A stretch of 64,000 bases of DNA from a virus (IMGVR_UViG_3300044638_003984), one strand, 5' to 3'. Positions 1-52,401 are shown, numbered from the stretch's first letter. Made by a program: numbers and translations. Notes: generated by a model from the sequence alone, not told the origin.

Positions 1-58
1 TCCAAAAGTTGCGCAATGTATACAAAAATCAAAGTGCATAAGTAGAAATTATAAAAAA

Positions 59-66
59 TATAAATA
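59..66 (+). promoter_or_regulatory. T4-type late promoter motif TATAAATA upstream of homing endonuclease gene
   Basis: Exact TATAAATA octamer ~70 nt upstream of the ATG at 137. Confidence 0.35.
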
Positions 67-136
67 TATTTATACGATTATGGAAGTCGTTACGCAACTC
101 CCATAATCTAAACACAAACTAAGGATAAGTTAGCTT

Positions 137-748
137 ATGTCTAAACCTATTTATTGCACTTACCTCACTGTATACAAAGGTAATAAACTCCCTCCATTTT
201 ATATTGGATCCACTTCTGTTGTCAAGATCAACAATGGTTATCGTGGTTCAGTTAAATCTAAGAAATACAAAGAAATCTGGAAATCTGAATTAAAGAATAA
301 TCCGAATCTATTTACAACAAAAATTGTAACAATTCACGATTCTAGACAAGAAGCTCTTGACAAGGAAGATTTGTTACACAAGAAACTTAATGTTGTTAAA
401 TCACCAATGTATATTAATATGTCATTTGCATCTAAGAACGGTTATTTTGGAACTTCGTTATCTGGATATGGACAAGACGCCCCATTCTACGGTAAAACGC
501 ATACAACAGAAACAAAAATGAAAATATCTAATAGTTTATGTGGTACAAGTAACCATATGTATGGTAAAACACACAGCCAAGAAGCTAGAAAGAATATTTC
601 TTTAAAATTGTCAGGCAATAAAAATGGTTCTTTTGGAAAGGGATGGTTTTATAATCCGTCAACATATGACAGTATTAAATGTTTTCCTGAAAATAAACCA
701 GAAAATTATATTCCTGGAAGAAAAATAAAACCAAGAATAACAAAGTAA
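137..748 (+). CDS. GIY-YIG homing endonuclease with NUMOD3 DNA-binding repeats (Seg-like)
   Basis: N-terminal IYCTYLTVYKGNKLPPFYIGST GIY-YIG motif; repeated GKTHTxETKxKIS NUMOD3 motifs; paralogue of 40428-41237. Confidence 0.8.
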   Translation: MSKPIYCTYLTVYKGNKLPPFYIGSTSVVKINNGYRGSVKSKKYKEIWKSELKNNPNLFTTKIVTIHDSRQEALDKEDLLHKKLNVVKSPMYINMSFASKNGYFGTSLSGYGQDAPFYGKTHTTETKMKISNSLCGTSNHMYGKTHSQEARKNISLKLSGNKNGSFGKGWFYNPSTYDSIKCFPENKPENYIPGRKIKPRITK

Positions 749-761
749 TGAACATTTAAAT

Positions 762-839
762 TGGTCGAGAAGGTAGGATTTGAACCTACGACCTCCTGTT
801 TCCAAAACAGGCGGGGACTCCAGACTCCCCTACTTCTCG
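762..839 (-). tRNA. tRNA-Pro (anticodon UGG), CCA encoded
   Basis: Cloverleaf on reverse complement: acceptor CGAGAAG/CTTCTCG, D-stem GGGG/CCCC, anticodon loop UUUGGAA, T-loop TTCAAAT, A73 then CCA. Confidence 0.8.
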
Positions 840-852
840 AAAAACTTTTGAT

Positions 853-928
853 GGAAAAGAGTGGGATTCGAACCCACGTGCTTCTGTTTCCAAAACAGAC
901 GAGATAAGCCAGACTCCTCTATTTCCCG
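853..928 (-). tRNA. tRNA-like second copy with UGG anticodon loop (degenerate acceptor stem, no CCA; possible pseudo-tRNA)
   Basis: Identical anticodon stem-loop UCUGU-UUUGGAA-ACAGA, same D-loop AGTCTGG and T-arm GTGGG-TTCGAAT-CCCAC as the Pro tRNA, but acceptor pairing is only 5-6/7. Confidence 0.4.
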
Positions 929-938
929 ATATTAAATT

Positions 939-1013
939 TGGAGCGGCCAGTCAAATTCGAATTGACACCAAGAGTTTGGAAGACTCCTGTGCTACCGTTA
1001 ACACCATGGCCGC
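939..1013 (-). tRNA. tRNA-Gly (anticodon UCC)
   Basis: Acceptor GCGGCCA/TGGCCGC, anticodon loop CUUCCAA, T-arm GTCAA-TTCGAAT-TTGAC, CCA encoded. Confidence 0.75.
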
Positions 1014-1024
1014 ATATAATCTTT

Positions 1025-1101
1025 TGGAGGGTATGTTGAGAATTGAACTCAATCTGAGAGATTCACAGTCTCCCGTGCAAAACCTTAAACACTTCATACC
1101 C
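1025..1101 (-). tRNA. tRNA-His (anticodon GUG)
   Basis: Acceptor GGGTATG/CATACCC, anticodon stem GGAGA/TCTCT with loop CUGUGAA, T-loop TTCAATT, CCA encoded. Confidence 0.7.
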
Positions 1102-1107
1102 AAACTT

Positions 1108-1200
1108 TGGTGCTCCCACCAGGATTCGAACCTGGACCGTGCTCTAATCAGGAGCGAACAGCTTATAAGGCTGCCGTGCTTACCATTACACCATAGGAGC
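1108..1200 (-). tRNA. Atypical 93-nt tRNA with anticodon UAU (AUA-decoding, Ile2-like) and a long type-II-like variable arm, discriminator A73
   Basis: Acceptor GCTCCTA/TGGGAGC, D-arm GTGT-AATGGTAA-GCAC, anticodon stem GCAGC/GCTGT with loop CUUAUAA, 22-nt variable region forming hairpin GCTC-CTGATTA-GAGC, T-arm CCAGG-TTCGAAT-CCTGG, CCA encoded. Confidence 0.55.
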
Positions 1201-1207
1201 AAATTTT

Positions 1208-1281
1208 TGGCTCTCCCGTTCGGATTCGAACCGAAATCGACGGTTTTGGAGACCGTAATGTTACCATTACACCACAGGAGT
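1208..1281 (-). tRNA. tRNA-Trp (anticodon CCA)
   Basis: Anticodon stem ACGGT/ACCGT with loop CUCCAAA, D-stem GTGT/ACAT, T-arm TTCGG-TTCGAAT-CCGAA, CCA encoded; 1:72 A-A mismatch. Confidence 0.7.
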
Positions 1282-1481
1282 ATTATTATTTATAGAACTC
1301 TTTGAGAGACCAGACCTCGAACCTGGATCAGTTAGCTTTGAACTAGCACCCAATTAGTGCCCTGGTTTTTCCTTGTTAAACTATCTCTCGAAATTTAAAT
1401 TAATCAGTATGGATTAATAAGCTATCTTTTTCATCCAATCTTTTCATCTGCTTACTAGATGTTGGACCTACTGATTAAAGT

Positions 1482-1563
1482 TGGTTGCGGAGGTAGGATT
1501 TGAACCTTTTGAGACGTCCTCTTGGTTATGAGCCAAGCGAGCTGACCGCTGCTCTACTCCACA
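1482..1563 (-). tRNA. tRNA-Met/Ile2-like (anticodon CAU), 82 nt with weak T-stem
   Basis: Acceptor TGTGGAG/CTCCGCA plus A73-CCA, D-arm GAGC-AGCGGTCA-GCTC, perfect anticodon stem CTTGG/CCAAG with loop CUCAUAA; T-stem only 3 bp and an extra variable segment containing GACGTC. Confidence 0.5.
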
Positions 1564-1568
1564 ACAAT

Positions 1569-1886
1569 TTAATACGAACTAAACGAAACACTCATTCTTT
1601 CGAAATCAACTTCTTCTGGATTGATTTGTGAAAGATCGAATCCTTCAACTTCAAAAACCTTTTCGGTCAATGTATGTTCCATTCCACAAGATCCATTACA
1701 AGAACAACCTGAGGAATAGCACCACAAAATCTTTCCTTCCGAATTAACTCCAATTCCTTCATAGTCATGGTGGCCGTAACCGTGTTCTTCGTTACAAATT
1801 TCTTTTACAATAACGCATTCCTCATCATCGAATGAAGACTTTGGTAGTGTATTGTAATTTTCAACAACATATTTAATGATATCCAT
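1569..1886 (-). CDS. hypothetical Cys-rich small protein embedded in tRNA array
   Basis: ORF-track ORF of 105 aa with a CYSSGCSCNGSCG cluster; sits between tRNA genes. Confidence 0.45.
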   Translation of the reverse strand: MDIIKYVVENYNTLPKSSFDDEECVIVKEICNEEHGYGHHDYEGIGVNSEGKILWCYSSGCSCNGSCGMEHTLTEKVFEVEGFDLSQINPEEVDFERMSVSFSSY

Positions 1887-1904
1887 TATTCCTCACAAAT
1901 TTTA

Positions 1905-1992
1905 TGGTGGAAGCCGTGAGATTTGAACTCACAATCCCCTTGGGGAAATGGTTTTACAGACCACCGCAGCTAACCGTATCTGCCTGACTTCC
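1905..1992 (-). tRNA. tRNA-Tyr (anticodon GUA), type II
   Basis: Acceptor GGAAGTC/GGCTTCC, anticodon stem GTGGT/ACCAT with loop CUGUAAA, long variable arm with CCCC/GGGG stem, T-arm GTGAG-TTCAAAT-CTCAC, A73-CCA. Confidence 0.8.
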
Positions 1993-1993
1993 A

Positions 1994-2149
1994 TTAATCT
2001 TTTCTAAAAACAAACTCAGTACAATCGCAAGTTAAACATTTCTTTTTGGTGTTTGGTATAATTTTACCACAATCACCTATTGGATATTTATGATCTTTTC
2101 TTTCATGACCGCATATACATGGATCATATTTAGTGCAATTAACTATCAT
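1994..2149 (-). CDS. hypothetical small Cys/His-rich (zinc-ribbon-like) protein
   Basis: The ORF-track ORF 1994-2218 overlaps tRNA-Glu; trimmed to the internal Met (MIVNCTKYDPCICGHERKDH...CLTCDC). Confidence 0.35.
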   Translation of the reverse strand: MIVNCTKYDPCICGHERKDHKYPIGDCGKIIPNTKKKCLTCDCTEFVFRKD

Positions 2150-2188
2150 AGATATACTATAACGTATTTTAGTTTGCTTGTCAATATT

Positions 2189-2265
2189 TGGTATGGTCGA
2201 CGGGATTTGAACCCGCAATCCCCACCTTGAAAGGGTGGTGGCTTAACCAATTTGCCTACGACCAT
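2189..2265 (-). tRNA. tRNA-Glu (anticodon UUC)
   Basis: Acceptor ATGGTCG/CGACCAT, anticodon stem CCACC/GGTGG with loop CUUUCAA, T-arm GCGGG-TTCAAAT-CCCGT, A73-CCA. Confidence 0.75.
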
Positions 2266-2283
2266 ATATGTTTAAATATTTTT

Positions 2284-2361
2284 GGTGGCTCCGCCCGGAT
2301 TCGAACCGGGATCTTATGCTCTTCAGGCATATGCTGCATACCAATCCAGCTACACAGAGCC
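2284..2361 (-). tRNA. tRNA-Phe (anticodon GAA)
   Basis: Acceptor GGCTCTG/CGGAGCC, anticodon stem TATGC/GCATA with loop CUGAAGA, T-arm CCCGG-TTCGAAT-CCGGG, A73-CCA; D-arm pairing imperfect. Confidence 0.65.
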
Positions 2362-2459
2362 ATTAAAATTTTGCGCTTCTCAGTGGATTTCACTATAGTT
2401 CCGAATCTTGACTAGATACCTTGAGCTCAGTATCAATCGCACGTCTATCACTAAGAATT

Positions 2460-2533
2460 TGGTGGAATCTGTCAGAATCGAACTGACATCGCCTGAATGC
2501 AAATCAGGAGTTTTCCCATTAAACTAAGACCCC
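2460..2533 (-). tRNA. tRNA-Ala (anticodon UGC)
   Basis: Acceptor GGGGTCT/AGATTCC with G3:U70 wobble, D-arm GTTT-AATGGGA-AAAC, anticodon stem CCTGA/TCAGG with loop UUUGCAU, T-arm GTCAG-TTCGATT-CTGAC, CCA. Confidence 0.7.
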
Positions 2534-2538
2534 AAAAG

Positions 2539-2612
2539 TGGAGGTTGATTGTAGAATTGAACACCAGATTTTCCGTAGACAACGGAAGGTTTTACCACTA
2601 AACTAACGAACC
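2539..2612 (-). tRNA. tRNA-Asp (anticodon GUC)
   Basis: Acceptor GGTTCGT/ATCAACC, D-arm GTTT-AGTGGTA-AAAC, anticodon stem TTCCG/CGGAA with loop UUGUCUA; T-stem has 2 mismatches. Confidence 0.55.
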
Positions 2613-2629
2613 AACTTACTACATTATTT

Positions 2630-2658
2630 AGTATACTTCTTTTAGAACATTTCGTCAA
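2630..2658 (-). promoter_or_regulatory. sigma70-like promoter (TTGACG-17-TATACT) upstream of tRNA-Asp
   Basis: The reverse complement reads TTGACGaaatgttctaaaagaagTATACT. Confidence 0.5.
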
Positions 2659-2664
2659 ACTCTT

Positions 2665-2838
2665 TTACCATTTTGTTAAAGAAAAAAGAACGATACTACC
2701 ATCACGATCAATACCAAACTGCATATCTTTGAATGTAAAGAACCACACTTCAAACAGATTTGAGTATTCAAGATCTGGAATCACTTCAGATAAACCAATT
2801 TCTTGAAGAGAAGAAATTACATCGTCATTAGGTTTCAT
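2665..2838 (-). CDS. hypothetical 57-aa protein (not in ORF track)
   Basis: ATG preceded by AAGGA Shine-Dalgarno at ~7 nt; translates MKPNDDVISSLQEIGLSEVIPDLEYSNLFEVWFFTFKDMQFGIDRDGSIVLFSLTKW. Confidence 0.35.
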   Translation of the reverse strand: MKPNDDVISSLQEIGLSEVIPDLEYSNLFEVWFFTFKDMQFGIDRDGSIVLFSLTKW

Positions 2839-2858
2839 AATTATCCTTTATTATAACT

Positions 2859-2932
2859 TGGAGCACTGTGATGGAATCGAACCATCGTTAACTGTTTTGC
2901 AGACAGTTACCTAGCCTCTCGGACAACAGTGC
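2859..2932 (-). tRNA. tRNA-Cys (anticodon GCA)
   Basis: Perfect acceptor GCACTGT/ACAGTGC, anticodon stem ACTGT/ACAGT with loop CUGCAAA, T-arm GATGG-TTCGATT-CCATC, CCA. Confidence 0.75.
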
Positions 2933-2942
2933 AAAAATTGTT

Positions 2943-3017
2943 TGGTGGGATCGGTGAGGCTCGAACTCACAACTCCAGACTTAAAAGGTCTGTACTCTAC
3001 CATTGAGTTACGATCCC
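2943..3017 (-). tRNA. tRNA-Lys (anticodon UUU)
   Basis: Acceptor GGGATCG/CGATCCC, D-arm ACTC-AATGGTA-GAGT, anticodon stem CAGAC/GTCTG with loop CUUUUAA, T-arm GTGAG-TTCGAGC-CTCAC, A73-CCA. Confidence 0.8.
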
Positions 3018-3100
3018 AAAATTTCTTTCATCACTTTCACATTTGATATTCACACAAACATTGAACCAACCTGACCATCAGTTTTGGATACTTAAAATTA

Positions 3101-3186
3101 TGGAGGAGGATGATAGCATCGAACTATTATCCCTAGAGATACTACGGTTTTCAAGACCGTGCGGGGAGCCAACCCCAGCATCCTCC
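3101..3186 (-). tRNA. tRNA-Ser (anticodon UGA), type II
   Basis: Acceptor GGAGGAT/ATCCTCC, anticodon stem ACGGT/ACCGT with loop CUUGAAA, long variable arm, CCA. Confidence 0.7.
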
Positions 3187-3192
3187 AATATT

Positions 3193-3267
3193 TGGCTCCC
3201 CGGGCAGGACTCGAACCTACAACATCCTGGTTAACAGCCAAGCGCTCTACCATTGAGCTACCGAGGA
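3193..3267 (-). tRNA. tRNA-Asn (anticodon GUU)
   Basis: Acceptor TCCTCGG/CCGGGGA, D-arm GCTC-AATGGTA-GAGC, anticodon stem CTTGG/CCAGG with loop CUGUUAA, T-arm GTAGG-TTCGAGT-CCTGC, G73-CCA. Confidence 0.75.
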
Positions 3268-3392
3268 ACAACTTAAAAAGGCCCGAACTGGGATCTCACG
3301 GGTATTCTCTGCATGCCGAGTTATTTCCCTATCGTTCCATAGAAGGTAACCATACATAGCACCATTTTCTATTGTCTATCCAGTTCAAAATT

Positions 3393-3476
3393 TGGTAGCC
3401 CTGGGAGGAGTTGAACCTCATGCCGTCCGCCCAACTCTAAGGATCGGTTTAGAAGACCGATGTCGGGTTCAGGGCC
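3393..3476 (-). tRNA. Atypical 84-nt tRNA-like with UCU (Arg) anticodon loop and truncated D-arm
   Basis: Acceptor GGCCCTG/CAGGGCT plus A-CCA, T-loop TTCAACT, perfect hairpin ATCGGT-CTTCTAA-ACCGAT; only ~9 nt where the D-arm should be and a ~23-nt extra segment. Confidence 0.4.
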
Positions 3477-3527
3477 AAAACTTGTAACAAGTGAGAGGAT
3501 CAACTTCATCAACTCAATCACTTATTT

Positions 3528-3556
3528 ATTATACTTCATTTTACTACTTTCGTCAA
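3528..3556 (-). promoter_or_regulatory. consensus sigma70-like promoter (TTGACG-17-TATAAT) heading the tRNA array
   Basis: The reverse complement reads TTGACGaaagtagtaaaatgaagTATAAT. Confidence 0.55.
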
Positions 3557-3560
3557 CCCA

Positions 3561-3635
3561 GGCGATTCTTTACCAAACTGATAGTTCACGCATTGTTCAA
3601 TGAACTTCCATGCGTAGATCAGGATAAAGAATCGC
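3561..3635. repeat. perfect 12-bp inverted repeat GGCGATTCTTTA / TAAAGAATCGCC flanking a 51-nt loop with inner palindrome GTTCAATGAAC
   Basis: Lies between two minus-strand promoters upstream of the tRNA array. Confidence 0.6.
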
Positions 3636-3682
3636 CGATCACTTAATTTAGATATTCAGTTGTCAAAGAACTTTACTTATTT

Positions 3683-3712
3683 AGTTTACTACTTTTTACT
3701 TCTTTTCGTCAA
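3683..3712 (-). promoter_or_regulatory. sigma70-like promoter (TTGACG-18-TAAACT)
   Basis: The reverse complement reads TTGACGaaaagaagtaaaaagtagTAAACT. Confidence 0.4.
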
Positions 3713-3750
3713 GCACTTTTTGTGAATTTTTGTTTCAAAAATTTTTTACA

Positions 3751-3963
3751 TTAATCTTCTTCGGTGTAGAGTTCGATATCTTCACGAAGAATTTTTGTTG
3801 CATGGATAGGTTCATCAGTCTGATCTACTCCGATAGCCCAAATTTCTTCATTGATTTCAACTACACGCCAACCAGTCCATTTCATTTCACGACAAGGTTC
3901 AACTCCTCCAATAACTTTTGTCTGTTTCTCATAATACGCATTCATTACTTCATTTTCAGTCAT
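3751..3963 (-). CDS. hypothetical protein (70 aa)
   Basis: ORF track; compact minus-strand operon of small genes. Confidence 0.4.
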   Translation of the reverse strand: MTENEVMNAYYEKQTKVIGGVEPCREMKWTGWRVVEINEEIWAIGVDQTDEPIHATKILREDIELYTEED

Positions 3964-3972
3964 TTGTAATCC

Positions 3973-4170
3973 TTAAAAGAATCGAACGGTTCGGAGATTG
4001 TATTCATCGCAAGTTAGAATTCCGAGATTCGTTTCGACGACAAAATTCTCGCCATCGAAGGATACGCAATAATCTGTAACAGAACCAGAGAATCGAACCA
4101 ATTGTCCGATCCTAGCAGCCCGAACCTGATCATCAGTAATTTCGAACCACGGCGCACTTGCCATTTCCAT
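3973..4170 (-). CDS. hypothetical protein (65 aa)
   Basis: ORF track. Confidence 0.4.
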   Translation of the reverse strand: MEMASAPWFEITDDQVRAARIGQLVRFSGSVTDYCVSFDGENFVVETNLGILTCDEYNLRTVRFF

Positions 4171-4218
4171 ACAACCATTATACCTTTTCAGATTTTGGAA
4201 GTCAAGCGATTTTGGAAA

Positions 4219-4506
4219 TTAATTTCCGAAAATCACTTTTCCTTCCAGGACGATCTTTCCATCAGATGTAGGAACGAGCAAACCATCGTTCATCAGAATC
4301 TTGAGAGGAGCAGCGGAACGAAGTTTTTCGAAATAATCCTCCACAGTATAATGCTTTATGAGCACGTTCATGAACTTTGTCTTCGTGACGGGAGCCTTTC
4401 TGTAGCGGAAACGAGCCACACAAACCTGGTTGCCGTTCAGATCGTAGTTCAGATAGTTGAACTGTAATCCTTTAATGTACGAAAATTTGCTTCGTTCGAA
4501 TTTCAT
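4219..4506 (-). CDS. hypothetical protein (95 aa), start trimmed to MKFERSKF
   Basis: ATG sits 6 nt after a TATAAT box (the conserved TATAATGGTTCTATGAAA element), so the upstream part of the ORF-track ORF is promoter sequence. Confidence 0.45.
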   Translation of the reverse strand: MKFERSKFSYIKGLQFNYLNYDLNGNQVCVARFRYRKAPVTKTKFMNVLIKHYTVEDYFEKLRSAAPLKILMNDGLLVPTSDGKIVLEGKVIFGN

Positions 4507-4512
4507 AGAACC

Positions 4513-4541
4513 ATTATAGCGTACTCGATCGACCGAAGCAA
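4513..4541 (-). promoter_or_regulatory. sigma70-like promoter TTGCTT-17-TATAAT with -10 box 6 nt before the ATG (leaderless-type)
   Basis: The reverse complement reads aaaaaagaTTGCTTcggtcgatcgagtacgcTATAATggttctATGaaa. Confidence 0.5.
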
Positions 4542-4585
4542 TCTTTTTTGAAATTTTTATTGCCTTTAGAATCAATGACTTGCAG

Positions 4586-4822
4586 TTAACTAATTGAAAA
4601 CACATGAGATATTCTTTTCTTCATGCATGCGTATGCATCCGCCGTTTCAATATGAAAAATGTACTTCGGCTTGGGATCCCTTTCCTGGGCTTCCGAAATG
4701 GTTCGGTATACCAAGGGTATACCGTCCTGGCCGATCGTTCCTGTGAGGAATGATTTTGGACACAGGCTGCATCCAAAATCATAAAGCCTATTGGCTACGA
4801 AGAATATTCTCTTTGTTTTCAA
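4586..4822 (-). CDS. hypothetical protein (TTG start in ORF track; uncertain)
   Basis: ORF track only; no clear RBS. Confidence 0.25.
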   Translation of the reverse strand: MKTKRIFFVANRLYDFGCSLCPKSFLTGTIGQDGIPLVYRTISEAQERDPKPKYIFHIETADAYACMKKRISHVFSIS

Positions 4823-4873
4823 TTACTTGCTGCAAATTATTGAAAATAAATAGAATATAGTTCAGAAAAAACT

Positions 4874-4901
4874 TTGATCTATTGTTCGTTCGAGGTATAA
4901 T
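4874..4901 (+). promoter_or_regulatory. sigma70-like promoter TTGATC-16-TATAAT, -10 box 6 nt before the ATG at 4908
   Basis: Reads aaaaaactTTGATCtattgttcgttcgaggTATAATggttctATGaaa; same downstream element as at 47850 and 4513(-). Confidence 0.5.
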
Positions 4902-4907
4902 GGTTCT

Positions 4908-5219
4908 ATGAAAGCTTATCGAAATATTCGGTTAACTGAATGTCCAGATATCGCAGATATCCAATACGAAGGGCGAAAGACCTCTGTTGGTCGGATTCTT
5001 AGAGGAGAGAAGGCGGTCCCTCGCTACAAGAACGGTATTGTTGGATATGCTGATGGTACTCCTGGAATCGACCTCAATGCCGATAAGATCGTCCACAACG
5101 ATCGTGGTTACTGCCGTCCCAAAAAGAAGAAGTCGGTCCGTCGTTATTTGAAGCGCAAAGACAAAGCGATGGAAATGAAGTTCCAAAAAAACTCTGAAAA
5201 TTTTTCTCAGAACGATTGA
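4908..5219 (+). CDS. hypothetical basic protein (103 aa)
   Basis: ORF track; Lys/Arg-rich C-terminus. Confidence 0.5.
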   Translation: MKAYRNIRLTECPDIADIQYEGRKTSVGRILRGEKAVPRYKNGIVGYADGTPGIDLNADKIVHNDRGYCRPKKKKSVRRYLKRKDKAMEMKFQKNSENFSQND

Positions 5220-5245
5220 CATTTTCCGATCAAATAGAGTACACT
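5216..5245 (+). promoter_or_regulatory. sigma70-like promoter TTGACA-18-TACACT, -10 ends 6 nt before the ATG at 5252
   Basis: Perfect -35 TTGACA; the ORF-track TTG start at 5216 is the -35 itself. Confidence 0.45.
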
Positions 5246-5251
5246 AATAAT

Positions 5252-6334
5252 ATGAAGAAACGCTTCTCAAATTCTAACGAAGTCTACTGGGGCAAAGAAC
5301 CCGAAGCAAAAGATTTCGTGGATCCTCTTTCGCCGAACTTTCGCACTTTTCTTCTTGAATCGCTGGCGTGGTACAACTACTCCACGACTTCGGAAAAGAA
5401 GAAGAGATGGTTTATTGACTGGGTGAAGGCCACTCGTCCGAAAGCCAATCATGCTGCTCTTGAAGTCATAAATGATGGCGCCTTCACTACTGCTGGTGCT
5501 CTGGCTCGGATGCATTCTCGTGGACTAACTGAATCCGATTACATTAACCGAAAACTCGCTGGTTGGGTTTCGGACTTTATTACCGAAGGCGAAGGAATCC
5601 TTCGTGCGAAGTCTGTTCAGAAAGAAACCAAGAAGAAGCTTGTTGAAGCCGATCCTCGTCTGTCGAATATGATTAATTCGCTAGATGAAGAATTGGATCG
5701 TCTTATCAAGAATAACTATAAACCGACGGGATTCAATATGGATTATTGGATTCGTCTGAATACTCCTTCTCCGGCTCATCATGCTGCGATTAAAGATCAC
5801 TTCATGAAACTTCTTGAAGAGATTACGAATGAAGATGATGAGCAGATTGCAGAAGCTTACTCTCATCTTAATGAGAAACAATTCAATAATCTGGTTGAAT
5901 TCGTTCTCGATATTGTTTCTACGAAGAAGATTCGGAAGACTCGGGTCGTTCGTAAGAAGAAGACCGCTTCTCCTGTGAAACAAGTTTCTAAGATGAAGTA
6001 TGCTGATAACGATCCGGATACTGGTGTTAAATCTGTTTCTCCCACCGACATTCCTGGTTCTAAGGTAGTCTGGGTTTGGAATAAGAAGTATCGGATGCTT
6101 GGCGCTTATTATGCTCAGGATGGTGCTGAAATCGCAGTGAAGGGTACGACTCTTCTAAACTTCGACGAAGAGATTTCTGTCTGGAAGAAGATTCGTAAAC
6201 CGGAAGTAATTATCCCTCAGATGATCTCCGCAGGAAAACCTGCAATGAAAAAAATCTTCGAAGGAATCGCTTCTAAGTCTTCTAAGATGACTGGTCGAAT
6301 TAACTCTGATACTGTGATCTTGAAGATCTCGTAA
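5252..6334 (+). CDS. hypothetical protein (361 aa)
   Basis: ORF track trimmed to the first ATG downstream of the promoter; no recognisable family. Confidence 0.5.
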   Translation: MKKRFSNSNEVYWGKEPEAKDFVDPLSPNFRTFLLESLAWYNYSTTSEKKKRWFIDWVKATRPKANHAALEVINDGAFTTAGALARMHSRGLTESDYINRKLAGWVSDFITEGEGILRAKSVQKETKKKLVEADPRLSNMINSLDEELDRLIKNNYKPTGFNMDYWIRLNTPSPAHHAAIKDHFMKLLEEITNEDDEQIAEAYSHLNEKQFNNLVEFVLDIVSTKKIRKTRVVRKKKTASPVKQVSKMKYADNDPDTGVKSVSPTDIPGSKVVWVWNKKYRMLGAYYAQDGAEIAVKGTTLLNFDEEISVWKKIRKPEVIIPQMISAGKPAMKKIFEGIASKSSKMTGRINSDTVILKIS

Positions 6335-6354
6335 TAATAAATAAAGATAGGAAT

Positions 6355-6603
6355 ATGTCTCACAACGAAACTGTAAATTATCTTGTACTCCAGGGCTGGG
6401 AGTATGATGCGAATGCTGGTGATGGCTTCGCTTTTCGACCTAATTGGTATGATGAGGATATCGATGAACAAGAATGGTTCACTATTGACCAAGCTCTTGA
6501 AATCGAAAAGATTAATGATCCAGAATCTTATCGAGAATATGATATGGTTCAGAATCTGAATTCTAGATACGCTTGTATGTTCTCTCAATATATGGAGTCG
6601 TAG
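6355..6603 (+). CDS. hypothetical acidic protein (82 aa), TAG stop immediately followed in frame by the next ATG
   Basis: ORF track. Confidence 0.45.
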   Translation: MSHNETVNYLVLQGWEYDANAGDGFAFRPNWYDEDIDEQEWFTIDQALEIEKINDPESYREYDMVQNLNSRYACMFSQYMES

Positions 6604-6819
6604 ATGATTCTCGGTTGGGTTATTACAAAGACTCATTCCTCTGGCGTAACAGAAGTTTACGCCAGAGATTATAAAGAATCATGTTTTGGATATTTTACGC
6701 CGAAGATTTCTGAATCTTATATCTTTCGAAATCGTTCGGCTGCTGAGTTAGAATTTAAGAATTATATAGCTATTGTTTCGGAATCATTTGAACTGGTTCC
6801 GGTAGAAGCTTATATCTAA
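6604..6819 (+). CDS. hypothetical protein (71 aa)
   Basis: ORF track; GGAG ~9 nt upstream. Confidence 0.4.
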   Translation: MILGWVITKTHSSGVTEVYARDYKESCFGYFTPKISESYIFRNRSAAELEFKNYIAIVSESFELVPVEAYI

Positions 6820-7724
6820 CTCAAGAAATTAACCCAACCTAGGATGTGTTTTTCCCAATCATAGTTCTCTCTTGCGAACTCTTGAATGTCGAGGCATTTT
6901 TTATTATATGCTTCTGGATTCTTTTGATAATATTCAATAGATTCTTTCAGAGCAGAACAATATTGATCCTCTTCAGGATAACCCATAGGAAGAACTACAC
7001 CACCACCTTTAGGTCCATAATCTTCGAAATATCCAACTGGTGTTGATAAGACTAATCTTCCTGCTGCAGCTGCTTCCATAGAAGGCAATCCAGCAGATTC
7101 TTCAATAGAAGACACTGCCAATGCATCGATTGAGTTATAATAACCTGGCATACACATCCAGTTATAGAAATTATGTTCCACTAATTTAACTTGTGGAATT
7201 TCTGTTGCAGTCTGTTTAACTAGATGACCACGTTTAATCTCTACATCGAAGAAATTCTTAGTCTCTTTCGCCCCACCATATCCTAACTTCTCAAGTTTTT
7301 CCGAAGGTTTCCTATAGAAGGAGTCGAAATGAATTCCAAAAGGAATTACATCAGGAATTCTTTCGACTCCAAATTCTGCCGCTTTATTCTTCAATACATT
7401 AGAAACTACACCAAATTTTTTAATTTGATTGTAGAAGAGATTACCGAAATCTCTTCTAGCAAGAAGCATATCCCACTGTCCATGAGCAACTGTTGCTAAT
7501 TTTTCAGGTGGAATTCCTAGTCTGTTCAGATGAACAATCGCTTCCGGATTAGTAACGAATAGATCGTAGGAGTCGTTTAATAAACGAATTTCATCAGGAG
7601 TATAGTGTTGTGTCCAATCAAGCAGATTGGCAATAATTCCATACTTATATAATTCTTTTGCTAGAGCATGATGGATCGATCCGAAGGCCCATCTGTTCTG
7701 TGTGTAGAATAATACTTTCTTCAT
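6816..7724 (-). CDS. glycosyltransferase, GT-B fold (group 1 / GT4-like)
   Basis: C-terminal SIEESAGLPSMEAAAAGRLVL (E-x7-E retaining GT motif). Confidence 0.65.
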   Translation of the reverse strand: MKKVLFYTQNRWAFGSIHHALAKELYKYGIIANLLDWTQHYTPDEIRLLNDSYDLFVTNPEAIVHLNRLGIPPEKLATVAHGQWDMLLARRDFGNLFYNQIKKFGVVSNVLKNKAAEFGVERIPDVIPFGIHFDSFYRKPSEKLEKLGYGGAKETKNFFDVEIKRGHLVKQTATEIPQVKLVEHNFYNWMCMPGYYNSIDALAVSSIEESAGLPSMEAAAAGRLVLSTPVGYFEDYGPKGGGVVLPMGYPEEDQYCSALKESIEYYQKNPEAYNKKCLDIQEFARENYDWEKHILGWVNFLS

Positions 7725-7760
7725 TATATACCTCGCAAATTCATTTTTATGTAAATAATA

Positions 7761-8405
7761 TTATTTGGTGGCTTTCCAGTTAGCAAACCATTCATGCTCT
7801 TCTTTACTTATTTTAGGTAAATTTGGATTACTTGTATTATAATCTGAACAACATGTAACTCCAAATACCCTATTATTAGGTAAACCATCAATATACCAAC
7901 AATCTGGTAAACACATATTAAACAAATAATCATCTCCATACAAAATTTGTAATTCACTTGGAATCTGAAGATAATTATTTTTCTTCATAATCATCAAACA
8001 CCCAAAACCCCAACACCGTTCATGTGCTCTTGTTAATTTGAGTGTATCTGAATTACTAAACATATTCAAACCGTATAAACCTGATTCGTGATTATCTAAT
8101 ACTGGTAATAGAGCATCAAAAATATTGGTATCAAATAAAATATCATCATTTAGAAGGCACACGTAATCGAATTTAGCTAATTTTACACCAAGATTCCAAG
8201 CGGGATTCACATAGATATTTTGTTCTTGATCTATTACGTTGATCTTCGGATTCTCTAATATTTTCCAATCAGGTGTTTTATTTTTCTTGTTATTGATAAT
8301 TATAATTTCATGTATTACATCTTGTTGTATCAGTTCAGTCAATTGGATCTCAAAACTCTGAGGAACCCACATTGTGGGTATAATGATTGAGAATTTGTTG
8401 TTCAT
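7761..8405 (-). CDS. glycosyltransferase family 2-like (GT-A)
   Basis: N-terminal FSIIIPT and an NDD (DxD-like) motif. Confidence 0.6.
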   Translation of the reverse strand: MNNKFSIIIPTMWVPQSFEIQLTELIQQDVIHEIIIINNKKNKTPDWKILENPKINVIDQEQNIYVNPAWNLGVKLAKFDYVCLLNDDILFDTNIFDALLPVLDNHESGLYGLNMFSNSDTLKLTRAHERCWGFGCLMIMKKNNYLQIPSELQILYGDDYLFNMCLPDCWYIDGLPNNRVFGVTCCSDYNTSNPNLPKISKEEHEWFANWKATK

Positions 8406-52326: not shown

Positions 52327-52401
52327 GCGCTTGTAGCATAATGGTAATGTAGAAGATTCTAAACCTTCGAGATGAGAGTTCGATTCTCTCCAAGCGCACC
52401 A
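52327..52401 (+). tRNA. amber suppressor tRNA (anticodon CUA), 75 nt, CCA encoded
   Basis: Cloverleaf GCGCTTG-TA-GCAT-AATGGTA-ATGT-A-GAAGA-TTCTAAA-CCTTC-GAGAT-GAGAG-TTCGATT-CTCTC-CAAGCGC-A-CCA; anticodon loop positions 34-36 = CTA. Confidence 0.7.

Follow-up and report, generated by a model that had tools for sequence, protein, structure and literature searches.

A family of phage tRNAs with anticodon UAU carries a second hairpin that resembles the anticodon arm of tRNA-Ile(GAU)

Phages and cellular tRNA arrays encode a family of tRNAs in which an arm with the anticodon UAU is followed by a second, tandem hairpin resembling the anticodon arm of tRNA-Ile(GAU). One member lies in the stretch of viral DNA analysed here (64,000 nt of IMGVR_UViG_3300044638_003984, hereafter the window). 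Our preferred reading, to which we assign a probability of roughly 0.5 from sequence comparisons, is that the second hairpin would act as a handle for host IleRS on a tRNA that reads AUA as isoleucine.

Structure of the tRNA(UAU) gene and its array

The window genome is that of a T4-like myovirus (Gp20 portal, terminase, tail sheath, RNR and NAMPT), and its portal is 44–49% identical to the portals of cyanophage T4-likes. ARAGORN identified 18 tRNA genes in the window, 17 of them in one co-oriented array at 762-3267; neither a tRNA-Ile(GAU) nor a tRNA-Leu is found among these 17 genes. The gene at 1108-1200 on the minus strand was called as a 93-nt tRNA-Ile(tat) and scored 62.9 bits against the Rfam tRNA model (RF00005), above the gathering threshold of 29. 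In the RNA sense it parses as GCUCCUA UG GUGU AAUGGUAA GCAC G GCAGC CUUAUAA GCUGU UC GCUC CUGAUUA GAGC ACGGU CCAGG UUCGAAU CCUGG UGGGAGC A CCA, and its five-arm cloverleaf is exactly the minimum-free-energy fold. The features to which we refer are as follows:

137-748, plus strand: NUMOD3-motif homing endonuclease gene beside the array (Pfam)
762-3267, minus strand: array of 17 tRNA genes, including the two-hairpin tRNA (ARAGORN)
1108-1200, minus strand: tRNA gene with anticodon UAU, 93 nt including the encoded CCA (1108-1110) and A73 (1111) (ARAGORN, Rfam, minimum-free-energy fold)
1158-1174, minus strand: hairpin 1, the decoding anticodon arm GCAGC-CUUAUAA-GCUGU, with UAU at 1165-1167 and both U33 and A37 present (ARAGORN, sequence; the stem covaries as helix 3)
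1156-1157, minus strand: 2-nt linker UC between hairpins 1 and 2; 1–6 nt across the family (family parse)
1141-1155, minus strand: hairpin 2, the 15-nt extra arm GCUC-CUGAUUA-GAGC, with a 7-nt loop at 1145-1151 and G-A-U at 1147-1149 (covariation, helix 4)
1136-1140, minus strand: variable loop ACGGU, positions 44-48, class-I type, directly 3′ of the extra hairpin, with U48 pairing to A15 (linker length, 15-48 covariation)
1119-1135, minus strand: T arm CCAGG-UUCGAAU-CCUGG (sequence; covariation, helix 5)

This structure agrees with the first-pass annotation of the same DNA, which had reported a 93-nt tRNA with clean acceptor (7 bp), D (4 bp), anticodon and T arms, the loop CUUAUAA (UAU) and A73, all of them present by ARAGORN, Rfam and sequence, together with a 22-nt region between the anticodon and T stems that does contain GCUC-CUGAUUA-GAGC. 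A repeat of GCTCCT in acceptor and hairpin, also pointed out there, is real but not meaningful: we regard it as a coincidence because it is absent in a relative (L001) whose acceptor reads GCCUCG and whose hairpin strand reads GCGCCA. The loop CUUAUAA, with U36-A37 in a t6A context, and A73 match the anticodon and discriminator of a bacterial AUA-decoding tRNA-Ile. Within the tRNA body, C4-G69 is present, and G12-C23 and A29-U41 (in the decoding stem) occupy the places of the E. coli-type U12-A23 and C29-G41. In anticodon-arm numbering, hairpin 2 of the window copy has C29-G41, C31-G39, C32, U33, G34, A35, U36, U37 and A38. The window tRNA shares the features by which we define the family below, namely a UAU loop with U33 and A37, a variable loop of 5–6 nt (here ACGGU), A73, and a hairpin 2 with a stem of 4–5 bp, a 7-nt loop, G-A-U at loop positions 3–5 and a C-G pair third from the loop.

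Other elements of the array and its surroundings are recorded here as separate observations. At the DNA level, the NUMOD3 gene at 137-748 (plus strand) is ~70% identical to ORFs from T4-like phages that infect Enterobacter and Citrobacter. The 5′ half of the tRNA(UAU) gene at 1108-1200 (CUCCUAUGGUGUAAUGGUAA) is nearly identical to that of the adjacent tRNA-Trp at 1208-1281 on the minus strand (CUCCUGUGGUGUAAUGGUAA), which suggests duplication or recombination between tRNA genes of the array. Two tandem tRNA-Pro(UGG) genes of differing sequence lie at 762-839 and 853-927 (minus strand), the second without an encoded CCA, and an 82-nt tRNA(CAU) at 1482-1563 (minus strand) has an unusually long variable region of ~13 nt; a sequence similar to it is annotated as tRNA-Met in Cronobacter phage GAP32. 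At 1301-1391 (minus strand), ARAGORN called a 91-nt 'tRNA-Asn(att)' for which Rfam gave no tRNA match. This element is conserved in a second locus (L003, 3272-3361), where substitutions in the acceptor, anticodon and T stems are compensated and the 2:71 mismatch stays constant, and it has a class-II-like arm, AGUU-CAAAGC-UAACU. Its anticodon loop, UAAUUGG in the window and UGAUUGG in L003, has no U33 in the ARAGORN frame, and a one-base shift of the frame would yield an isoleucine anticodon, AAU or GAU; the element may be a second irregular tRNA tied to isoleucine decoding. A lone tRNA with anticodon CUA (amber-suppressor type, 'Pyl' in ARAGORN) sits amid structural genes at 52327-52401 (plus strand). 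Recoding of TAG is unsupported, as TAG ends 9 of 64 window ORFs and treating it as a sense codon does not merge large ORFs.

A conserved family with a class-I core

Relatives were gathered by four broad viral pattern scans, each with at least 120 matches, and by running ARAGORN on all loci; every count is a lower bound. All but one of the viral scans had GATTA or CAGATTA as a requirement, and the counts are shaped by this pattern-based ascertainment. An exact-pattern scan of viral contigs returned three relatives. Altogether the family comprises at least 201 unique sequences of 84–99 nt, representing at least 65 lineages (≤85% identity), and occurs on more than 250 viral contigs. The anticodon is UAU in 201 of 201 unique relatives among the matches listed. 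Among the listed matches that were carefully parsed (157 members), A73 is invariant (157/157) and CCA is encoded in 106, and the decoding loop has U33 in 155, U34-A35-U36 in 157 and A37 in 156. The association between extra arm and anticodon holds in both directions: 148 of 152 tRNAs with CAGATTA and the T-loop motif, among the matches listed, have UAU and none has CAU, the remaining four being chance overlaps with other arms, and a scan free of any T-loop requirement gave UAU in 48 of 48 listed tRNAs.

Loop statistics were taken from the one scan that placed no constraint on the extra-arm loop (37 lineages). In 33 of these 37 lineages, among the matches listed, the extra loop has 7 nt with G-A-U at positions 3–5, with variants that include CAGAUUA, UAGAUUU, UAGAUUG, CUGAUUA, CCGAUUA, CAGAUGG, UAGAUCG and CAGAUAA, among others. 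The anticodon-like appearance of this hairpin and its GAU, noted in the first pass from the window copy, is in fact the defining conserved feature of the family.

An alignment of 42 diverse relatives yielded paired bases in 96.9% of helix cells, compared with 64.6% after shuffling and 35–47% when partners were slid. Three of the four pairs of the extra-arm helix change on both sides in this alignment, and the 7-bp acceptor stem and the 5-bp T stem covary as well. Compensatory changes are already evident in the L001 relative, on a 130-kb contig with different neighbouring genes, where they fall in the acceptor and T stems as well as in the extra hairpin. Covariation supports every helix of the two-hairpin tRNA, and judged by its sequences the family is very probably real and functional. 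One further regularity concerns the first acceptor pair: G1·U72 is found in ~54% of family lineages, compared with 13% for the other tRNAs and 4% for the tRNA-Ile(GAU) of these loci. The window copy has G1-C72.

We then asked how the extra hairpin relates to the long variable arm of class-II tRNAs, since the first-pass annotation had assigned the gene a type-II, Leu-like body. Like bacterial tRNA-Leu, tRNA-Ser and tRNA-Tyr, family members are ~85–95 nt long and have an additional stem-loop between the anticodon and T arms. They differ in having a conserved 7-nt loop, a class-I D arm and a complete 5-nt variable loop after the arm. Specifically, among the matches listed, the linker 3′ of the extra hairpin has 5 nt in 103 of 157 members and 6 nt in 53 of 157, the latter corresponding to a cyanophage subtype, whereas tRNA-Leu, tRNA-Ser and tRNA-Tyr from the same loci have arm loops of 3–4 nt and 3′ linkers of 1–3 nt. 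The linker follows the pattern N-N-R-N-Y, and its last base covaries with position 15 (A15-U48 in 55, G15-C48 in 15), which identifies this stretch as the ordinary variable loop of positions 44-48. Given that a regular 5-nt variable loop and its R15-Y48 pair lie 3′ of it, the extra hairpin is not a class-II arm. The D arm of the family is likewise of class-I type: U12-A23 occurs in 65–78% of the family, compared with 0–17% of tRNA-Leu and 94% of tRNA-Ile(GAU) from the same loci. When the tRNA body was compared with its nearest isotypes, best matches were scattered over Met, Lys, Trp and Glu, and Leu was not enriched among the nearest neighbours. Together, the linker, D-arm and loop features define a topology of two tandem hairpins between positions 26 and 44, and class-II membership (Leu, Ser or Tyr) was rejected on the 7-nt loop, the 5-nt 3′ linker and the R15-Y48 covariation. 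In silico deletion of either hairpin followed by a rerun of ARAGORN was uninformative, as many of the isolated sequences were uncalled anyway.

Two other origins were considered and rejected. Derivation from tRNA-Leu(UAA) by a single base change, raised in the first pass, does not fit a family in which UAU is found in every one of the 201 relatives listed and the body is not Leu-like; comparison with relatives, which might have exposed a normal tRNA-Leu(UAA) orthologue and hence a mutation, returned none among the matches listed. The second candidate was the allo-tRNAs, among which UAU is one of the predominant anticodons (PMC5389517). Likewise irregular and long-armed, allo-tRNAs come from bacteria and phages, with examples in Acidobacteria and in phage tRNA clusters; unlike the present family, they have 8/4 or 9/3 acceptor/T geometry, G73 or U73, and Ser identity. 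The covarying 7/5 acceptor/T stems and the A73 of all 157 listed members rule out membership, and an 8/4 reading of the subtype with a small D arm was rejected by hand check, as the eighth acceptor pair would be a mismatch.

The family extends beyond uncultured viruses. At least 21 contigs of cellular MAGs, mostly from Pyrinomonadaceae/Blastocatellia (Acidobacteriota), carry members, and these copies lie inside long tRNA arrays, often directly beside tRNA-Ile(GAU). BLAST of the window tRNA and of window positions 1-8000 against cultured phages returned no orthologue; BLAST with a concatenate of five diverse family members recovered copies in two cultured cyanophages, S-SRM01 (NC_070963, 32944-33031) and S-SKS1 (NC_020851, ~178.5 kb), both in regions without annotation in the record. 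In the cyanophage subtype the D arm is reduced to 4 bp and a UGGU loop, and the Rfam score of 28.8 bits narrowly misses the threshold of 29. Plain phage tRNA-Ile(UAU) of 73–75 nt also occur, sometimes on the same contig as the two-hairpin form (L067, L084), so the extra arm is not universally required. As a separate observation, S-SRM01, S-SKS1 and Pyrinomonadaceae arrays contain, alongside two-hairpin tRNA(UAU), class-I-shaped tRNA-Leu of 73–78 nt that lack a long variable arm and have the anticodons UAA, CAA, UAG and GAG (L270 2161-2233; L271 1801-1877; L246 5184-5448; L251 2660-3008). The two-hairpin family is apparently undescribed so far: no description of it was found in the openly accessible full-text literature.

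An isoleucine-type arm and the meaning of ATA

To what extent does hairpin 2 resemble an anticodon arm of a particular isotype? Across the family, its loop in anticodon numbering has C or U at 32, A33 (95%), G34, A35, U36, U37 (93%) and A38 (87%); the window copy, with U at the 33-equivalent, departs from that 95%. Its stem has 4 bp, against 5 in the anticodon stem. The pair equivalent to 29:41, which no search pattern constrained, is C-G in 194 of 201 sequences and 61 of 65 lineages among the matches listed, and the neighbouring 30:40 and 28:42 equivalents covary freely. Elsewhere C29-G41 is less common: of 2212 other tRNAs from these loci 12% have it, as do 23–29% of the family's own decoding stems and 63% of the tRNA-Ile(GAU) genes present there. 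With the triplet masked, the four stem pairs of hairpin 2, with or without positions 32 and 38, best match the Ile(UAU) and Ile(GAU) profiles out of 32 isoacceptor models, and an Ile anticodon-arm model is the best for 45 of 65 lineages among the matches listed. The real anticodon arm, hairpin 1, best matches the profiles of Met, Arg and Lys.

The bacterial Ile identity set, as described, consists of A73, C4-G69, U12-A23, C29-G41, N34, A35, U36, A37 and A38 (PMC9976931). Judged by sequence, hairpin 2 carries the bacterial IleRS determinants C29-G41, G34, A35, U36 and A38. Its A33 and U37, conversely, argue against decoding by this hairpin, and because hairpin 1 keeps U33 and A37 while hairpin 2 mostly lacks both, hairpin 1 is identified as the decoder. 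By the same sequence criteria, hairpin 2 has the character of a copied Ile anticodon arm unsuited to decoding. We also considered whether its loop might pair elsewhere within the tRNA. Pairing of extra-loop GAUU with T-loop AAUC (T-loop positions 59-61) was rejected, as T loops vary under a constant CAGAUUA (TTCGATC, TTCGATT, TTCAAAT, TTCGAGT and others in the T-loop-free scan), and pairing with the anticodon loop was rejected by inspection, as it would comprise at most 3 bp and position 38 varies (A, C or U) opposite an invariant partner.

The meaning of AUA itself was approached through the window's codons, of which ATA makes up 336 of 18,457 (18.2 per 1000). We aligned the translated window ORFs to phage T4 with tblastn and counted, codon by codon, which T4 residues stood opposite. 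Opposite 88 ATA codons, T4 has I at 0.27, V at 0.22 and L at 0.15, a distribution near that opposite ATT/ATC (I 0.35–0.38, V 0.16–0.17, L 0.10–0.12); opposite Leu codons, L reaches 0.37–0.43. For the 88 sites, the Ile profile gives a log-likelihood of −210.8 and the Val profile −211.4, compared with −229.5 for the Leu profile and −249.0 for the Met profile. Ile and Val are thus not separated by this test, whereas the gap of 18.7 lnL between the Leu and Ile profiles, similar to that of the ATC control, disfavours AUA as a leucine codon and runs counter to the leucylation, with Leu inserted at AUA, that the first-pass annotation had envisaged. The test reflects all AUA decoding during infection, that by host tRNA-Ile2 included, in addition to any contribution of the two-hairpin tRNA. 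We consider it likely that the two-hairpin tRNA carries isoleucine, and an 'unusual tRNA-Ile(UAU)', listed in the first pass as a fallback, is the description that best fits the evidence.

Proposed function, alternatives and significance

AUA is the hardest sense codon for bacteria. Its usual decoder, tRNA-Ile2(CAU), depends on lysidine supplied by host TilS, and a plain UAU tRNA is a poor substrate for typical bacterial IleRS; phage T4's own tRNA-Ile is of the CAU type. E. coli IleRS charges tRNA(UAU) inefficiently, and Mycoplasma mobile IleRS requires Arg865 to do so (PMC3575796). The primary identity element for IleRS is the anticodon, and a yeast UAU transcript that lacks modifications has 40-fold lower activity than its modified counterpart (PMC11685878). 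Given that the extra arm occurs only with UAU, never with CAU, and bears Ile determinants, the simplest reading is that it would supply the IleRS surface that UAU lacks.

In the mechanism we propose, the tRNA would be a functional elongator that translates AUA as isoleucine, with hairpin 1 (UAU, U33, A37) decoding on the ribosome. Hairpin 2 would replicate the anticodon arm of tRNA-Ile(GAU), retaining the anticodon-branch elements read by IleRS while being unable to decode, and host IleRS would recognise and charge the tRNA through it. A division of labour this complete, in which IleRS reads a decoding-dead GAU arm and the ribosome an inserted UAU arm, is a more tentative proposition than the handle itself, and we place it somewhat short of even odds. 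As the likely origin of the family we propose insertion of a new decoding arm after position 26 of a tRNA-Ile(GAU). IleRS would meet the GAU arm in the position of an anticodon arm, for example with hairpin 2 stacked under the D stem during charging, which implies a tRNA core able to place either hairpin there. Since the 3′ strand of hairpin 2 enters position 44 and the 5′ strand of hairpin 1 follows position 26, either could stack under the D stem. The result would be an AUA decoder for a mobile element that depends neither on TilS nor on an adapted IleRS.

We infer both the binding of hairpin 2 by IleRS and the manner of that binding, and geometry is the main weakness of the model: with the 3′ end in the active site, an arm at the hinge of a canonical L-shape cannot reach the anticodon-binding domain of IleRS, so another stacking or binding mode would be needed. 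In addition, hairpin 2 has U at position 37 and therefore cannot carry t6A37, on which E. coli IleRS relies as a determinant. The 4-bp length of its stem, instead of 5 bp, and the existence of plain phage tRNA-Ile(UAU) also count against the model. A dedicated partner protein did not emerge from the genomic context. Clustering of 3299 ORFs from 219 loci yielded only homing endonucleases (near family members in at most 15 of 55 lineages) and lineage-specific ORFs, and a Pfam scan of the ORFs flanking the window array found glycosyltransferases, a methyltransferase and the NUMOD3 endonuclease. The lack of a partner encoded nearby points to a host factor.

That factor might be something other than IleRS. 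A less probable alternative, though the strongest competitor, accepts an AUA-decoding tRNA-Ile and has the arm dock a different partner, such as a U34-modifying enzyme that limits reading to AUA, a host or phage protein, or the ribosome, or has it stiffen the 26/44 hinge against misreading of AUG. A conserved loop on a partly conserved stem shows only that something recognises it, the arm exits at the hinge between anticodon stem and D stem, and the geometric objection to IleRS favours another partner; a role in fidelity is plausible in that M. mobile tRNA(UAU) misreads AUG on E. coli ribosomes (PMC3575796). This alternative nevertheless leaves unexplained the combination of a GAU triplet, the Ile-specific C29-G41 and an Ile-type stem, the sparsely distributed homing endonucleases are the only proteins that co-occur with the family, and docking of the loop onto T-loop positions 59-61 is excluded by the variation of T loops noted above.

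It is improbable that the molecule is a non-translational, tRNA-like decoy or regulator, whether a sponge for an anticodon nuclease or other defence aimed at tRNA-Ile(GAU) or a titrator of IleRS. Such a role would suit an arm that mimics the tRNA-Ile(GAU) anticodon arm yet cannot decode, and the reduced D arm and sub-threshold score of the cyanophage subtype are compatible with it. However, hairpin 1 retains the full features of a working loop (C/U32, U33, UAU, A37), A73 is invariant and CCA frequently encoded among the listed members, and the family conserves the 7/5 acceptor/T geometry that EF-Tu requires, all of which makes a decoy unlikely; moreover, the tRNA sits in arrays with one tRNA per codon family, often beside tRNA-Ile(GAU), and AUA is frequent in phage codons. 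Least probable is a LeuRS substrate that places Leu at AUA through recoding or mistranslation: although the anticodon is not read by LeuRS, A73 and A15-U48 would suit a bacterial Leu tRNA (PMC9976931) and a nematode class-II tRNA(UAU) accepts Leu alone in vitro (PMC3333845), this reading is opposed by the ATA-aligned residues, by an arm geometry unlike that of tRNA-Leu from the same loci, by a body without Leu affinity in which U12-A23 is common, and by G15-C48 in ~20% of members with a normal D arm, and it would leave the GAU loop without purpose.

Known systems offer partial precedents for the IleRS-handle model. The tRNA-Ile2(UAU) of M. mobile shares UAU, A37, A73 and decoding of AUA without TilS or lysidine (PMC3575796), but it is an ordinary class-I tRNA whose charging is solved in the enzyme, by Arg865 of IleRS; here the tRNA itself bears a second, GAU hairpin, and the carriers are phages and tRNA arrays rather than a TilS-less cell lineage. 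Nematode nev-tRNA-Ile(UAU) (PMC3333845) also combines UAU with a long extra arm, yet nev-tRNAs are eukaryotic, derived from tRNA-Leu and charged with Leu, while no sign of Leu ancestry is seen in the present family and ATA behaves as an isoleucine codon.

Further parallels come from RNA elements of other kinds. In the operator of E. coli thrS mRNA, a hairpin copies the cognate anticodon stem-loop and is bound by the anticodon-binding domain of ThrRS. Hairpin 2 would similarly be an anticodon-arm mimic outside a decoding arm that serves synthetase binding, with the difference that the thrS mimic lies in an mRNA and represses translation, whereas this one lies inside a tRNA and would promote charging. 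Yeast tRNA-Ile(UAU) requires its intron for the anticodon pseudouridines, another case in which an accessory RNA element offsets weak recognition or decoding of UAU; the intron is removed and works through modification, in contrast to a hairpin that is permanent in the mature tRNA.

Part of the family falls below tRNA detection thresholds and is unannotated in GenBank, so inventories of phage tRNAs and analyses of codon adaptation miss an AUA decoder. Synechococcus cultures with S-SRM01 and with S-SKS1 provide direct experimental access. If the proposed function is correct, the family would represent both a new tRNA architecture and a new identity strategy, and would give tRNA engineering a ready natural template for separating charging from the anticodon. 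Phages and tRNA arrays would then have solved the AUA problem within the RNA, by pairing a copied arm that serves as an identity module with a separate arm for decoding.
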